A stretch of DNA of 64,000 nt from a virus (lineage: Duplodnaviria; Caudoviricetes), in the IMG/VR virus record IMGVR_UViG_3300028638_000008, positions 10,464 through 74,463 of that record. The stretch is one strand, 5' to 3'. The notes under the pieces are model-generated. The model searched no databases and was not told the origin of the DNA. It saw only the letters and a list, made by a program, of their open reading frames with translations. Shown piece by piece: positions 1,854-52,027 of the stretch; the stretch's first letter is position 1, and every line of letters begins with the position of its first letter. The position numbers were made by a program, and so were the translations under genes.

Positions 1854-2369
1854 ATGAAAGAAACTAAGTTGAAGGTTGAATATAAATCAGTTGATAAGTT
1901 AATACCGTATGTAAATAACGCGAGAACTCACGACGAAAAGCAGGTTACACAAATAGCCGCTTCAATAAAGGAGTTCGGCTTCAACAACCCGATTTTGCTT
2001 GATGGCGATAATGGCGTTGTGGCTGGTCATGGGCGTTTGATGGCAGCAAAGAAATTAGGGCTTAAAGAAGTGCCTTGCATTGAGCTTTCGCATTTAACTG
2101 AAGTGCAGAAAAAGGCGTATATTTTGGCCGATAATAAATTGGCGCTTAATGCAAGTTGGGATAACGAACTACTTGGGTTAGAATTAAAGGCGCTTACAAA
2201 TGCAGATATTGATTTGATAAATCTTGGGTTTGATGAATATGAAATTCAATCATTAACGGGCAATTCAAGCAATGTCGATTTGAATAGTTTTTTTGAAAAT
2301 TCTGAATCAACTTCAAAAAAACCAAAAACTACAAAATGCCCATCATGCGGCGAGGAATTTGAAATATGA
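1854..2369 (+). CDS. ParB N-terminal domain protein with C-terminal CxxC ribbon
   Basis: PYVNNARTH..SIKEFGFNNPIL..AGHGRLMAA..LADNKLALNASWD; ends KCPSCGEEFEI. Confidence 0.85.
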   Translation: MKETKLKVEYKSVDKLIPYVNNARTHDEKQVTQIAASIKEFGFNNPILLDGDNGVVAGHGRLMAAKKLGLKEVPCIELSHLTEVQKKAYILADNKLALNASWDNELLGLELKALTNADIDLINLGFDEYEIQSLTGNSSNVDLNSFFENSESTSKKPKTTKCPSCGEEFEI

Positions 2370-3010
2370 AAAAAAATGGTATAATTATTTTGTCTGGCGG
2401 GATGGACAGCACAACTCTTTTATATGATTTTAAAAAAGATATCGCGTTGGCATTATCTTTTGATTACCAATCAAAGCACAATAAAAAAGAGCTTGCTTTT
2501 GCAAAATACCATTGTCAAAAACTTGGCATTAAACATTTTGTTATTAATCTTGATTTTATTGACAAATTTTTTGCATCTTCTTTGTTAAAATCTGGAACCA
2601 ATATTCCTGACGGACACTACGAGGATGAAAACATGAAATCAACGGTCGTGCCCTTCCGAAATGGCATCATGCTTTCGATTGCAGCGGGAATTGCGGAAAG
2701 CAACGGGTTAAGCAATATTTACATTGGAAATCATGCTGGCGACCATGCTATTTATCCAGATTGTCGGCCGAATTTTATTAATTATATGTCTGATGCAATA
2801 ACTGCGGGAACTTATGTTAAGGTAGAAATAAAAGCACAATATACCAATATTAATAAAAGACAAATCGCATTAATTGGCAAAGAACTTGGTGTCGATTATA
2901 GTAAAACATGGACTTGTTATAAAGGTCGTGACAAACATTGTGGAAAATGTGGCAGTTGTGTGGAGCGACAAGAAGCCCTCAATGGGTTTGATACAACGGA
3001 ATACGAATAA
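2366..3010 (+). CDS. queC: 7-cyano-7-deazaguanine (preQ0) synthase
   Basis: SGGMDS PP-loop, VPFRNGIMLS, HAGDHAIYPDCR, C-x7-CGKCGSC zinc motif. Confidence 0.95.
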   Translation: MKKNGIIILSGGMDSTTLLYDFKKDIALALSFDYQSKHNKKELAFAKYHCQKLGIKHFVINLDFIDKFFASSLLKSGTNIPDGHYEDENMKSTVVPFRNGIMLSIAAGIAESNGLSNIYIGNHAGDHAIYPDCRPNFINYMSDAITAGTYVKVEIKAQYTNINKRQIALIGKELGVDYSKTWTCYKGRDKHCGKCGSCVERQEALNGFDTTEYE

Positions 3011-3744
3011 TGAAAATTTTTTTGGCCGGTTCTGGATGGGAAAAGACGTGTTGGGCTAATAGAGATTTTTTTGATTTTTTTCGTCTTGAAAGTTTTGCAT
3101 ATATTTCAACATACGAACGATCTGTTATAAATAAATATCGTTCTTTTTTATTAGATAGTGGAGCATTTACATATCTTAATAAAAAGACGGGTGATGTGGA
3201 TTGGCTAAAATACATTGAACAATATGCTGATTTTATAAAAAAGTATAATGTTGATTTATTTTTTGAATTAGACATAGACTCTGTTATTGGACTCCCTGCT
3301 GTTGAGCGACTAAGAGATATTCTTGAGGCTCGTTGCAATAAAAAATGTATTCCAGTTTGGCATAAAAGCAGGGGGTTGGATTATTGGAAAATGTTGACTC
3401 AAAAATATGATTATGTGGCTATTGGAGGAATCGTTACAAAAGAAATTAAGCCGAGTGAATACGATGTGTTTTTATCTCTTCTTGCCATTGCCAATTCAAA
3501 TAATTGTAAGGTGCACGCATTAGGATTTACTAATTTAATTGGATTAAAAAAATATCCGTTTTATTCTGTTGATAGCACAAGCTGGCTAAGTGGCAATAGA
3601 TTTGGCTCTGTTTATTTATTTGATGGCAAAAACATGCAAAAACAAAATAAAAAGACAGGACAAAGAGTAATAACAAATAAGACCGCAATACATAATTTTA
3701 ATGAATGGGTGAAATTTCAGCGGTATGCTGAAAAAAATTTATAG
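3010..3744 (+). CDS. dpdA: TGT-fold DNA transglycosylase, DpdA-like
   Basis: FLLDSGAF, ELD, IPVWH, VAIGG, VHALG, SVDSTSW motifs; no tRNA-TGT zinc motif; embedded in the que/fol operon. Confidence 0.7.
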   Translation: MKIFLAGSGWEKTCWANRDFFDFFRLESFAYISTYERSVINKYRSFLLDSGAFTYLNKKTGDVDWLKYIEQYADFIKKYNVDLFFELDIDSVIGLPAVERLRDILEARCNKKCIPVWHKSRGLDYWKMLTQKYDYVAIGGIVTKEIKPSEYDVFLSLLAIANSNNCKVHALGFTNLIGLKKYPFYSVDSTSWLSGNRFGSVYLFDGKNMQKQNKKTGQRVITNKTAIHNFNEWVKFQRYAEKNL

Positions 3745-3753
3745 GAGTATAAA

Positions 3754-4083
3754 ATGTATAAAATACAAAAACGAATGGAAATTTCAGCTAGTCATAAGCT
3801 CAATCTTGACTATGATAGTAAATGTCGGAATTATCACGGACATAACTGGATTGTTATTGTTTATTGTAAGGCAGAAAAATTAAATCATAATGACATGGTA
3901 ATTGATTTTACTCATGTAAAAAGAATAATTCATGATAAACTAGACCATCAGTGTTTAAATGACCAATTAAGTTTTAATCCTACTGCTGAAAATATTGCTA
4001 AGTGGATTGTTGATAACGTAGATAATTGTTATCGCGCAGATGTGCAGGAAAGCGAGGGAAATACGGCTAGTTATGAAATATAA
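3754..4083 (+). CDS. queD: 6-carboxy-5,6,7,8-tetrahydropterin synthase
   Basis: SASH.L....SKC..YHGHNW, IDF, LDH..LN, NPTAENIA, VQESEGN. Confidence 0.92.
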   Translation: MYKIQKRMEISASHKLNLDYDSKCRNYHGHNWIVIVYCKAEKLNHNDMVIDFTHVKRIIHDKLDHQCLNDQLSFNPTAENIAKWIVDNVDNCYRADVQESEGNTASYEI

Positions 4084-4633
4084 AGTTAATGAAATTTTTA
4101 ATAGCTGGCAGGGAGAGGGGTTTTTTACTGGAACTCCGTGTACTTTTATTCGATTATCCGGCTGTAATCTTAATTGTGAATGGTGTGATACTGATTTTTT
4201 AAGCTTTTCCACTCAAAATATTGAACAAATTATGAAAAAAGCTGCTTATCGTTTTGTGGTTATAACGGGTGGAGAGCCTACCATTCAAAATATTCAACCA
4301 TTGATTATTGCGTTGCAAGAAAAAAAACATTTCGTTGCGATTGAAACAAATGGATTGAATGCACCACCGATTTGTGATTGGATTTCGATGTCGCCCAAAA
4401 ACGGACATTATAATAAAAATCATTTGGCCTACGCTAATGAGATTAAGTTGGTTGTTGACAATTCAGACTTAAATCAATTATTAAACGATGTCGCAGAACA
4501 TAAGAAAACTGATTTGGTTTGGTTGCAACCGGAAGGGAACAAGCAAAAATATATTGAACAATGTCAAAAAATAAGCTTGGTGACTGGCTATAGAGTTGGG
4601 CATCAGATACACAAGTTAAGAAATTGGAGATAA
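4073..4633 (+). CDS. queE: 7-carboxy-7-deazaguanine synthase (radical SAM)
   Basis: EIFNSWQGEG, FIRLSGCNLNCEWCDT (CxxxCxxC), VITGGEP, IETNG, SPK, LQPE; ATG 4073 preferred over track start 4040. Confidence 0.92.
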   Translation: MKYKVNEIFNSWQGEGFFTGTPCTFIRLSGCNLNCEWCDTDFLSFSTQNIEQIMKKAAYRFVVITGGEPTIQNIQPLIIALQEKKHFVAIETNGLNAPPICDWISMSPKNGHYNKNHLAYANEIKLVVDNSDLNQLLNDVAEHKKTDLVWLQPEGNKQKYIEQCQKISLVTGYRVGHQIHKLRNWR

Positions 4634-4635
4634 AT

Positions 4636-5175
4636 ATGATAAAAGAAAGCATTAAAAACATATTAAAATCAATTGGCGAAGACCCGAATAGAGAAGGTTT
4701 AATAGATACACCGCGACGAGTAGAAAAGGCTTATGATAAGTTGTTTGGTGGTTATAAACAATGCGCTTGCGATGTATTGAAAACATCTTTTAAAGAAGGC
4801 AGTTGTGATGAGATGGTTATTTTAAAGGATATTGAATTTTATTCAACATGCGAACATCATCTACTTCCCTTTTTTGGGGTTATTTCAGTTGGATATCTGC
4901 CAAATAAAAAAGTCGTAGGAATATCGAAACTTGCTAGACTTGTCGAAGTATTTGCTCGTAGAGCGCAAATTCAGGAAAGATTAACTGCTCAAATCGCAGA
5001 TTCAATTATGCAAGAGCTAGAAGCTAGGGGCGCTATTGTAATTTGCGAAGCGCAGCATTTTTGTATGACTGCTCGCGGTGTTGAAAAACAAAAAAGCAAA
5101 ATGGTGACAAGTGCTTTGCGTGGTATTTTTCGGCAACATATTGTTAGACAAGAGTTTTTACAGTTAATAAAATGA
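4636..5175 (+). CDS. folE: GTP cyclohydrolase I
   Basis: GEDPNREGLIDTPRRV, STCEHHLLPF, GISKLARLV, QIQERLT, HFCMTARGV. Confidence 0.95.
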   Translation: MIKESIKNILKSIGEDPNREGLIDTPRRVEKAYDKLFGGYKQCACDVLKTSFKEGSCDEMVILKDIEFYSTCEHHLLPFFGVISVGYLPNKKVVGISKLARLVEVFARRAQIQERLTAQIADSIMQELEARGAIVICEAQHFCMTARGVEKQKSKMVTSALRGIFRQHIVRQEFLQLIK

Positions 5176-5294
5176 AGACATCAATCCCCAAATGGAAGCG
5201 TCGCCTCTGGAAGATGATAGACAACCCCGAAGGGTTGCGGTTTACTTTATCTGAAAAACGATACGAGGTTGTTGCGGCTGGCCGCCGCAGCGGT
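5172..5294 (+). CDS. terL: Terminase large subunit, 5' coding segment (41 codons, ends at Walker A ...VVAAGRRSG)
   Basis: ATG overlaps the folE stop (ATGA); MKTSIPKWKRRLWKMIDNPEGLRFTLSEKRYEVVAAGRRSG, then continues LRLPLS* to a stop at 5313 if the insert is read. Confidence 0.85.
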
Positions 5295-5346
5295 CTACGT
5301 TTGCCCTTGTCTTAATTGGCAAGGGCAGGCGTAGATAAATAAAGGC
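5295..5346 (+). other. 52-nt non-coding hairpin insert in terL (candidate translational-bypass coding gap or mini-intron)
   Basis: 17-bp stem 5295-5311/5318-5334 with 3 G-U pairs, loop TTAATT, then ATAAATAAA GGC; stops in all three frames (5313, 5332, 5336). Confidence 0.8.
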
Positions 5347-6588
5347 AAATCAGAAAGAGCGAAGAGAAAATTTATAAAAAAAGTATTGCGTGGCTCGAAC
5401 TTTGAAGACCCGCGCTATGCTGTTTGCGCTCCGACACAAGGTCAGTGCGTAAAGATTTACTGGAACGACTTTAAAGCAATGATACCGCCTGAGTTAATGG
5501 CAAAAAAGCCGAACGAATCTGATAAAGAGATTTATTTAATCAACGGCGCGACAATATTTCTTGCAGGGCTTGATAACCCGGCGCGCATTGAAGGCGCTCC
5601 TGTAGACGGATTTCTTTTCGACGAAGTAGATGATATTAAGCGTTCGGCATGGGAAGCTCACGTTTTCCCGTGTTTTATCGACAGGGGCGCTTTTGCGATG
5701 TTTTGCGGCGTGCCCAACGGTTTGCAGTATCTTTATGAATTAAGTCTTAACGCGGCAAAATACCCGGATGAATGGGATTTTTTCACTTGGAAAAGTGCCG
5801 AAGTTATCGACCCGAAAGAGATTGCAAATTTTAAAAGAATTTACGACGAAAGAACTTTTGCACAAGAATTTGAGGGTAGTTTTGTAACTTTCTCAGGTCG
5901 CGTTGCCTATGCCTTTGACCGCGAACACTACAAGCACGAACTTGTTCATAGCTTACAAAAGCCGCTTGAAATCTGTTTTGACTTCAATAATGCTCCCGGT
6001 ATCGCCGCAATCGTTCAAGAACAAGTAATGCCCGGCCAATTTGAATACATCGAAACAGGCAATGGCGTGATAAAATCGCCAGTTATTGGCTCAGGCGTAA
6101 TCGGTGAAGTATGGATTCCTCGCCATTCTAACACGCTTCTTGTGTGCCGCAAGCTTTATGAAGATTGGAAGCACCACAAGGGCGAAATAATCTTCTACGG
6201 CGACCCGGCAGGCGGTAACAAAACTTCGCAGGGCGTGCAAGGTTCAGATTGGGATTTGATAAAAGATTTTTTTGAACAAACAGACTGGAAACACCGAATG
6301 AGCTTCGACGTGCCACGCGCTCACCCGTCAGTAAGGTCGAGAATTAACGCAATGAATTGTAGAATTAAGTCGATTGATGGTATAATAAGATTTATGGTTG
6401 ACCCTGTTGCCGCGCCGCATGTTGTTGAAGATTTTGAGCGGCTAACGGTTCTTGAAGGCTCTAATGGCGAGATTGATAAGAACGCAAATAAGGCAATCGG
6501 GCATTTGTTCGACGCGGTATCGTATCGCGAATGTCAGAAATACCCGGTTGATGAAGCGACCCGCATTATAACGGTAAAAGATTTTTAA
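5347..6588 (+). CDS. terL: Terminase large subunit, 3' coding segment (ATPase remainder plus RNase H-like nuclease)
   Basis: Frame open from KSERAKRKFIKK; CAPT, LAGLDNP..IEG, Walker B LFDEVDD, GVPNG, FDFN, YGDPAG, HLFDAVSY. Confidence 0.9.
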   Translation, partial: KSERAKRKFIKKVLRGSNFEDPRYAVCAPTQGQCVKIYWNDFKAMIPPELMAKKPNESDKEIYLINGATIFLAGLDNPARIEGAPVDGFLFDEVDDIKRSAWEAHVFPCFIDRGAFAMFCGVPNGLQYLYELSLNAAKYPDEWDFFTWKSAEVIDPKEIANFKRIYDERTFAQEFEGSFVTFSGRVAYAFDREHYKHELVHSLQKPLEICFDFNNAPGIAAIVQEQVMPGQFEYIETGNGVIKSPVIGSGVIGEVWIPRHSNTLLVCRKLYEDWKHHKGEIIFYGDPAGGNKTSQGVQGSDWDLIKDFFEQTDWKHRMSFDVPRAHPSVRSRINAMNCRIKSIDGIIRFMVDPVAAPHVVEDFERLTVLEGSNGEIDKNANKAIGHLFDAVSYRECQKYPVDEATRIITVKDF

Positions 6589-51944: not shown

Positions 51945-52027
51945 TGCGGCGCGGGGGAATCGAACCCCCATAGCCTTTCGGCTGAGTGATTTTAAGTCAC
52001 TTGTGTATGCCATTTCACCACCGCCGC
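51945..52027 (-). tRNA. tRNA-Leu (anticodon UAA), no encoded CCA
   Basis: GCGGCGG TG GTGAAATGGCATACAC A AGTGA CTTAAAA TCACT, long variable arm AGCCGAAAGGCT, T-arm GGGGG TTCGATT CCCCC, discriminator A; G7:G66 mismatch. Confidence 0.92.

Follow-up and report, generated by a model that had tools for sequence, protein, structure and literature searches.

We analyzed a 64-kb stretch of DNA (the window) from an uncultured wastewater phage, in which the large terminase gene, terL, is interrupted by a 52-nucleotide (nt) coding gap. The window was taken from a 74,463-bp IMG/VR viral record that is rated about 75% complete. All coordinates are those of the window, and gap lengths are counted through the proposed landing codon. 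The gene is on the plus strand and lies in two pieces. Exon 1 (5172 to 5294) contains 41 codons and encodes M...KWKRRLWKMIDNPEGLRFT...YEVVAAGRRSG. Its ATG at 5172 overlaps the folE stop codon (ATGA). It ends at GGT (5292 to 5294) with the peptide ...VVAAGRRSG, which corresponds to the first half of Walker A. Exon 2 (5347 to 6588) contains 413 codons and a stop codon. It starts with the Walker A Lys-Ser (KSERAKRK...), and a domain search identified its product as a Terminase_6N-type large terminase. A search of the 74-kb record found no second terL or other terL piece.

The coding gap (5295 to 5346, plus strand) contains stop codons in all three frames. These are TAA at 5313 in the exon 1 frame, TAG at 5332 in the exon 2 frame, and TAA at 5336 in the third frame. 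The proposed take-off codon is GGU (Gly41; 5292 to 5294), and it sits within the base of the gap hairpin. It is followed by CUA (5295 to 5297), the proposed A-site codon at take-off, which is rare in the phage. The gap hairpin itself (5293 to 5336, plus strand) contains 19 bp and a 6-nt loop, UUAAUU, with its upper part at 5302 to 5327. The UAA in the loop (5313 to 5315) is in the exon 1 frame. An unstructured, A/U-rich spacer, AAAUAAA (5337 to 5343), connects the hairpin to the proposed landing codon, GGC (5344 to 5346), which would not be translated a second time. The first canonical start codon in the exon 2 frame of the window is TTG at 5386. The initial annotation of this stretch had given the same coordinates, frames, 52-nt length, stop codons, GGC, and TTG, and all of these were confirmed base for base. 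It had also described a 17-bp stem (5295-5311/5318-5334) with the loop TTAATT. That core stem is present, and two added pairs (G5293.U5336 and U5294-A5335) extend it to 19 bp.

The hairpin is the dominant structure of the window. Its fold is -39.2 kcal/mol, compared with -20.4 +/- 2.8 kcal/mol for shuffled sequences (z = -6.7), and none of 200 shuffles equaled it. Among 60-nt folds on both strands of the 64 kb it is the most stable, at -37.6 against a mean of -10.1 (standard deviation, 4.6). The minus strand of the hairpin folds 10 kcal/mol worse. A search of the 74-kb record for further hairpin copies gave an element copy number of 1, and nothing comparable turned up when the window was scanned for inverted repeats with exact seeds. 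In a strict pattern scan of IMG/VR, the hairpin was matched only in terL of the clade described below. A loose pattern for the self-complementary apex was also run against IMG/VR. It retrieved mostly terminator-like hairpins with T runs in unrelated phages, and these were judged to be chance matches.

Relatives were retrieved from IMG/VR, JGI metagenomes, GTDB genomes, and Logan/ENA assemblies. Gapless relatives that share the exon 1 peptide encode ...YEVVAAGRRSGK(T/S)ERAKRKF without interruption. The close ones (L027, P0007-P0011, P0015, and P0021) are 54 to 65% identical and contain (Y/F)EVVAAGRRSGK(T/S)ERAKRKF in one frame, with a single Gly at the junction. About 60 more distant TerL loci encode ...PAGRRSGKTE..., again uninterrupted. 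Gapless TerL P0009 aligns to the record in exactly two pieces, residues 4-43 (exon 1) and residues 40-449. The structure of Thermus phage P74-26 TerL (4zni) has GRQSGKSE at the equivalent place, and the alignment extends over Walker B. By these alignments, the split motif is the P-loop (Walker A). The junction is fixed, because the gapless relatives read AAGRRSGK(T/S)ERAK contiguously. Homology thus indicates that the protein to be made must be exon 1 plus exon 2, with one Gly between Ser and Lys. One further frame break, in L027 (515-520), was considered as a second gap and ruled out; the record has NN there, a masked or ambiguous stretch.

We recovered 11 distinct gap-bearing sequences, including the window, from independent metagenomes and assemblies. 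The ten others are L003, L004, L006, L017/L050, L037, L008, L023, L009, L033, and L020. Their TerL exon 2 is 63 to 96% identical to that of the window. A search for the exon 1 peptide as a small open reading frame (ORF) gave four matches, all near-identical to loci already found. The insert is at the same codon in every sequence. The take-off codon is GGU or GGC in 11/11, the hairpin begins within it in 11/11, and the exon 1 frame reaches a stop 1 to 8 codons past the Gly codon in 11/11. The 3' boundary is the first accessible Gly codon past an A/U-rich spacer in 10 of the 11. The landing position is GGC in eight, GGA in two (L006 and L037), and GAC in one (L020), and matched GGY/GGC codons are present in eight (GGU/GGC in the window). 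The spacers of the relatives are 5 to 9 nt long (3 nt in L020) with an A+U content of 0.57 to 1.0. They vary in both sequence and length, as in AAAUAAA, CAUAAAA, and UCAUCGAA. The gap lengths are 52, 53, 52, 50, 54, 52, 51, 51, 51, 49, and 45 nt and fall in all three phases.

The insert was also present in public sequencing runs, which we examined as Logan contigs. Near-identical DNA was found in runs of 12 studies from 2016 to 2025, from activated sludge, wastewater, and digesters. Contigs of three of four examined runs (two studies) cover the gap without an indel. In two runs, contigs reach across it from one exon to the other, with word depths of 62 and 126. Variants with the gap are abundant in these public runs. 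Some contigs stop at the hairpin, at 5292, 5321, and 5345, and we read these ends as graph breaks at the palindrome, not as biology. The initial annotation had argued against an assembly inversion artifact. That argument is borne out by the ten other distinct sequences from independent assemblies and by the contigs that bridge the gap.

Three of the retrieved loci are unusual. L030 (900-1000) is a 2,352-bp contig binned as an Omnitrophota metagenome-assembled genome, and it matches exon 2 at 99% identity from TCAGAAAGAG onward, just past the gap; an unrelated ORF lies upstream. The contig is probably chimeric, misassembled at the palindrome. In L033 (936-1016), the hairpin is open in the exon 2 frame, and the gene caller gives a 439-amino-acid (aa) "TerL" (P0013) with a spurious N terminus that runs through the hairpin. 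It is an example of how annotation hides such gaps. L020 (1456-1500) contains a 45-nt in-frame gap with TAG inside, GGC directly after the take-off GGU, and GAC at landing. Decay of this copy, a sequencing error, or a different rule may account for it.

Both exons show the substitution pattern of coding sequence. Among gap-bearing lineages, the proportion of synonymous differences (pS) in exon 1 is 0.5 to 0.9, near saturation, against 0.1 to 0.26 for nonsynonymous differences (pN). The first 14 codons past the gap show a similar pS/pN pattern, and synonymous changes (e.g., Arg as AGA versus CGT) start at the first codon after it. The pattern argues that both exons are translated and under purifying selection up to the gap on each side.

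The stem covaries. We scored 20 stem pairs in an alignment of the gap-bearing sequences (A2), with slid partner columns and 500 shuffles as controls. Paired cells make up 93.5%, compared with about 43% when the partner columns are slid. Both-sided changes were found in 11 of the 20 pairs, and none of the 500 shuffles matched the observed values. The paired cells comprise 154 Watson-Crick pairs, 47 G.U pairs, and 0 A.C pairs. The gap stem is therefore selected as a sense-strand RNA structure; neither a palindrome acting as DNA nor an operator for a protein would give this bias of G.U over A.C. The window stem contains three non-Watson-Crick pairs, each U(5')-G(3'). The initial annotation had taken them as a sign of selection on mRNA structure, and the family-wide counts agree. 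The alignment of terL relatives that it had proposed as a check showed both gapless alleles and stem covariation. Between hairpin types, the apex is 69 to 88% identical, and the lower stem is 15 to 41% identical yet still paired.

A second structure lies just 5' of the gap. The 5' stem-loop (5269 to 5293, plus strand) contains 10 bp and the loop UGGCC, and it arises from the choice of synonymous codons for VVAAGRRS. The first two bases of the take-off codon are part of its 3' arm. We folded the 33 nt ending with the take-off codon, a stretch whose encoded peptide is identical whether or not a gene contains the gap. The fold is -15.4 kcal/mol in the window and -10.8 to -15.4 kcal/mol in 10 of the 11 gap-bearing sequences; that of L020 is weak (-7.1 kcal/mol). 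The same 33 nt in eight gapless relatives fold at only -3.7 to -8.1 kcal/mol, and the stem-loop is specific to gap-bearing alleles. Against random synonymous recodings, the gap-bearing sequences rank in the top 0.5 to 10%, whereas the gapless ones fall at the 33rd to 91st percentile (Mann-Whitney p = 4e-4; 0.004 when each lineage is represented once). The stem registers differ between types, with GCGGC...GCCGC in the window type and GGCCGCC...GGCGGUC in the L008 type.

Six sequences have CUA directly after the take-off codon, four (the type-B relatives) have CGU, and one (L020) has GGC. In window ORFs of at least 150 aa, CTA accounts for 6% of Leu codons and is among the four rarest codons. 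CTA and CGT are both among the six rarest codons of the long ORFs in the window.

We consider it probable that the 52-nt hairpin gap is crossed by programmed translational bypass of the T4 gene 60 kind, from Gly codon to Gly codon. The initial annotation had offered this reading from a single sequence, and the comparative evidence supports it. The junction, the anchoring of the hairpin on the take-off codon, the covariation, and the 5' stem-loop would all be expected of a bypass, and the alternatives are hard to fit. A single frameshift had been judged unable to rescue the protein, which the stops in three frames and the gap lengths in all phases confirm. Neither a frameshift nor a fixed-distance excision fits, because the gap lengths fall in every phase.

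The proposed bypass would run as follows. The ribosome would translate exon 1, as selection on that exon suggests. With Gly41 GGU in the P site and the rare CUA in the A site, it would pause. The G+C-rich upper stem would start about 10 to 11 nt downstream of the P-site codon, which is roughly where mRNA enters the ribosome. By the geometry of the A2 alignment, this upper stem may be the pause signal at the mRNA entrance. The peptidyl-tRNA-Gly would then unpair from GGU, and the ribosome would slide past the hairpin without decoding. Gly codons in the 3' arm would stay concealed by the structure, and the 5' stem-loop would refold behind the ribosome and favor forward motion. In the A/U-rich spacer, the anticodon would re-pair with the first accessible Gly codon, GGC at 5344 to 5346. 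Decoding would restart at AAA and give ...AAGRRSG-KSERAKRK..., an intact Walker A whose junction is the one shown by homology. The product would contain the junction-spanning peptide VVAAGRRSGKSE. Ribosomes that fail to bypass would terminate at the UAA at 5313 and release a 47-aa peptide.

Several observations count against a bypass of this kind. No gap-bearing sequence has a stop after the take-off codon. A Shine-Dalgarno (SD)-like triplet 5 to 7 nt before the landing codon was not found in the gap-bearing sequences; the nearest AGG or GGG is 14 to 18 nt upstream of the landing codon, within the stem. A 19-bp, 44-nt hairpin could not fold inside the A site, and the mechanics would differ from those of gene 60. 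Codon rarity was measured on the phage ORFs and not on those of the host. The initial annotation had further proposed that one tRNA reads both codons and that KWKRR acts as a nascent-peptide signal. The first part stands for the window pair, GGU/GGC. It fails in the L006/L037 lineage, where GGU is paired with GGA, which is not a one-tRNA pair under standard wobble. This lineage is well sampled (P0006 is on eight contigs), and two-out-of-three re-pairing in the P site could cover a GGA landing. It also fails in L020, where GGU would lead to GAC, which bypass leaves unexplained. A UCG-to-UCG take-off and landing was tried for L020 and rejected, as the resulting AGRRSKDKT would destroy the P-loop Gly. 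The KWKRR proposal is weakened as well. The basic exon 1 peptide (KWKRR..., ...GRRSG) is the same and equally conserved in gapless relatives, and it shows no link to the gap.

The gap might instead be removed as a mini-intron, cut from the mRNA by a phage or host endonuclease and rejoined by a ligase into a continuous terL message. A covarying sense-strand hairpin with a sequence-conserved apex could be its recognition element. The public-run rows labeled RNA-Seq are probably DNA and so uninformative on splicing, and a mature mRNA that still holds the gap has no support from them. However, a self-splicing intron of group I or II would need far more than 52 nt. An Rfam scan of the gap at E values up to 10 gave only generic hairpin (microRNA precursor) noise and no family match, and as general knowledge, a bacterial mRNA splicing system of such a kind is not known. 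The 3' boundary lies 3 to 9 nt past the hairpin, across the variable spacer, whereas a structure-guided nuclease would cut at fixed geometry. Hairpin-guided excision is disfavored because the spacer varies, removal of the hairpin alone never restores the frame, and the 3' boundary is a redundant Gly codon; bypass is favored as a result. Neither that Gly codon nor the rare codon at the 5' edge has a role in splicing. GU...AG ends of the gap occur in some sequences and are absent in L006 and L008. They are irrelevant in bacteria and were dropped. On balance, we think a mini-intron unlikely. Two separate polypeptides are another option, with the exon 1 peptide and an independently started or re-initiated exon 2 protein assembling non-covalently, or with the large piece sufficing. 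Gene callers do give exon 2 alone, at about 400 aa (P0001-P0006), and selection on both pieces would also fit non-covalent complementation. The split, though, falls between the P-loop Gly and Lys, which need one continuous loop (general knowledge and the 4zni alignment), and the codons directly past the gap, that of the Walker Lys among them, change in the manner of coding sequence. Within the exon 2 frame, the position of the first canonical start depends on the sequence: it is codon 14, 11, 37, 45, -10, or -26 (codon 45 in L008 and L023). Because this position varies, independent initiation is not a conserved solution as judged from the relatives, and it would also lose the Walker lysine. 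Two polypeptides therefore seem very unlikely.

The remaining explanations place the answer in the DNA. Part of the population might lose the palindrome by precise deletion, or TerL might be supplied by co-infecting gapless relatives. The interleaving of gapless and gap-bearing alleles on the TerL tree, in similar habitats, does imply precise loss or gain over evolutionary time, and palindromes are generally known to be prone to deletion. The flanking direct repeat, however, is merely GG, and no insert-less joint was found in the contigs of the four public runs, though contigs drop rare variants. We regard DNA-level removal as very improbable indeed. Least credible, and given almost no weight, is a dead gene, with terL either a pseudogene of an element in decay or a product of faulty assembly. 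In a single sequence, a stop-filled insert in an essential motif looks broken, and the record is only about three-quarters complete. That impression does not survive the comparison. Eleven distinct sequences, drawn from many samples and years, share the insert at one codon. Apart from it, neither exon is damaged, and purifying selection acts on both. The stem changes are compensatory, and recent runs cover the insert at the high word depths given above.

To examine the history of the insert, we used a tree built from exon 2 residues 1 to 200. Genes with a gap, with an intein, and with neither are mixed together in one clade with 100/100 support. Gap-bearing L008, L023, and L009 are nested among gapless P0007-P0010, and L033, which contains a gap with the same hairpin type, falls outside. 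Gap-bearing L020 is sister to intein-bearing L005. This interleaving indicates that the insert was gained or precisely lost several times. The hairpins of the window and L006 are 92 to 100% identical despite an exon 1 pS of 0.49, which indicates either strong constraint or recent transfer.

Inteins were found close to the gap site. In L005 (1768-4239; the same as L021 and L042), the intein is about 370 aa long and combines a Hint domain at its N terminus with a LAGLIDADG_3 domain. It interrupts TerL of L005/L021 at AGRR|S; the gap site is 6 nt farther downstream. L049 and L051 contain the same intein C-terminal junction, ...GLVTSN|SGK, at the AGRR|S site. A 52-nt insert 6 nt from this site would, by its position, divide a typical LAGLIDADG target in two. 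In its behavior, the insert resembles a small selfish or protective element. By analogy, protection from intein homing is a plausible reason for its persistence; protection from homing has been proposed for gene 60 (PMC5009743). We tentatively suggest, as a possibility that we rate below even, a stand-alone bacterial family of 45- to 54-nt hop elements. It would be marked by a large hairpin and a synonymous 5' stem-loop, with no stop, SD site, or endonuclease cassette. Its members might be kept as anti-homing immunity inserts, within a wider and overlooked class of terminase Walker A hairpin gaps.

Two further groups of terL genes in this collection differ in architecture. The gap-bearing exon 2 of L009 (3001-4845; the same as L031 and L046) contains 614 codons versus about 412. 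It has a weak Intein_splicing match at residues 431-499, and this terL seems to hold the hairpin gap plus a separate intein in its nuclease half. P0012 and P0019, with L010, L024, L026, and L047, are mosaic terminases with a different ATPase N terminus (...RFRVLASGRRFGKSRLAVAE...). Their C-terminal half is nearly identical to the nuclease domain of this clade, which points to recombination inside terL.

The genes around terL were also compared. Across the gap-bearing loci, the gap has folE or terS-like genes upstream and a portal gene downstream. In the window, the gene 3' of terL belongs to the DUF4055 family and is taken to be the portal. Directly 5' of terL, positions 2366-5175 contain queC, a DpdA-like gene (no Pfam match), queD, queE, and folE. 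Relatives L038 and L039 encode QueC and GTP cyclohydrolase I, with an intervening terS-like helix-turn-helix gene. The queC-folE cluster upstream of terL is a 7-deazaguanine DNA-modification cluster. The sole tRNA gene of the window, tRNA-Leu(UAA) at 51945-52027 on the minus strand, does not read the post-take-off CUA. A megablast of the terL region against GenBank phages returned no match.

The only documented cases of efficient bypass across about 50 nt are T4 gene 60, its homologues, and a single lineage of yeast mitochondria. The rules of bypass have so far been derived from what is in essence one family of sequences, and they would be put to the test by an unrelated family that sits in an essential packaging gene. 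The 11 natural variants differ in gap length, stem sequence, landing codon, and spacer. They would sort out which features are general (matched codons, take-off within a stem, a 5' stem-loop, and an A/U-rich run-up) and which are dispensable (the stop codon, the SD site, the tetraloop, and an imported nascent peptide). There is also a consequence for annotation. Callers render the gapped terL as truncated 400-aa proteins, and such phages may be scored as defective; terL phylogenies and completeness estimates would be affected as well. The adjacency of the intein site gives a testable idea for the persistence of the insert.

A literature search found no hairpin gap of roughly 50 nt within a terL Walker A motif. 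The terminase of Streptomyces phage Hau3 is comparable in that its large subunit gene contains skipped non-coding inserts and is a candidate for bypass. Its gaps, however, are 10 nt (7 nt in one prophage), are triggered by UUA, and depend on a developmentally limited tRNA. They are at other positions, have no long hairpin, and belong to an unrelated phage group. The LAGLIDADG inteins of the TerL P-loop occupy nearly the same site as the gap and share its patchy, selfish distribution. Inteins pass through translation and are then spliced out of the protein; the gap is untranslatable and encodes nothing.

The byps of Magnusiomyces capitatus mitochondria, as cited in PMC5009743, are also short G+C-rich hairpin inserts in essential genes with matched codons. 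Like the terL gap, they are tolerated as selfish DNA. They differ in being many per genome and in being read by mitochondrial translation; the terL gap occurs once per genome, only in terL, in a bacterial setting.

The comparison with gene 60 was drawn from the Manning and Atkins preprint (10.1101/2022.08.31.505936) and a cryo-electron microscopy study (PMC5462505). T4 gene 60 and its homologues bypass 50 nt in Myoviridae topoisomerase genes, and the homologues feature matched codons, a take-off stem-loop, a hungry codon, an AU-rich 3' part, and a 5' stem-loop (10.1101/2022.08.31.505936). Gene 60 differs from the gapped terL in several respects. It is a topoisomerase gene, the gap here is in the terL Walker A, and no sequence likeness was seen. 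Its stem is short with a UUCG or GNRA tetraloop, compared with 19 bp and a 6-nt loop. It has a stop after take-off and an SD-like triplet 5 to 7 nt before landing, and the terL gap has neither. A MobA-type HNH gene is adjacent to gene 60, and none is beside the terL gap. The nascent peptide of gene 60 is imported by the insert, whereas that of terL is the native TerL N terminus. The likenesses are as follows. Both have a gap of about 50 nt with stops and with Gly at take-off and landing, and the GGU/GGC pair also occurs among gene 60 homologues. In both, the take-off codon is in a covarying stem-loop, with an A/U-rich stretch before landing and an upstream 5' stem-loop that folds more stably than in gapless genes. 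The Stupor/Abraxas clade of gene 60 has a rare codon in place of the stop, and the rare CUA or CGU of terL may play the same part. Both inserts show a patchy, mobile-element-like distribution and share their site with homing elements.

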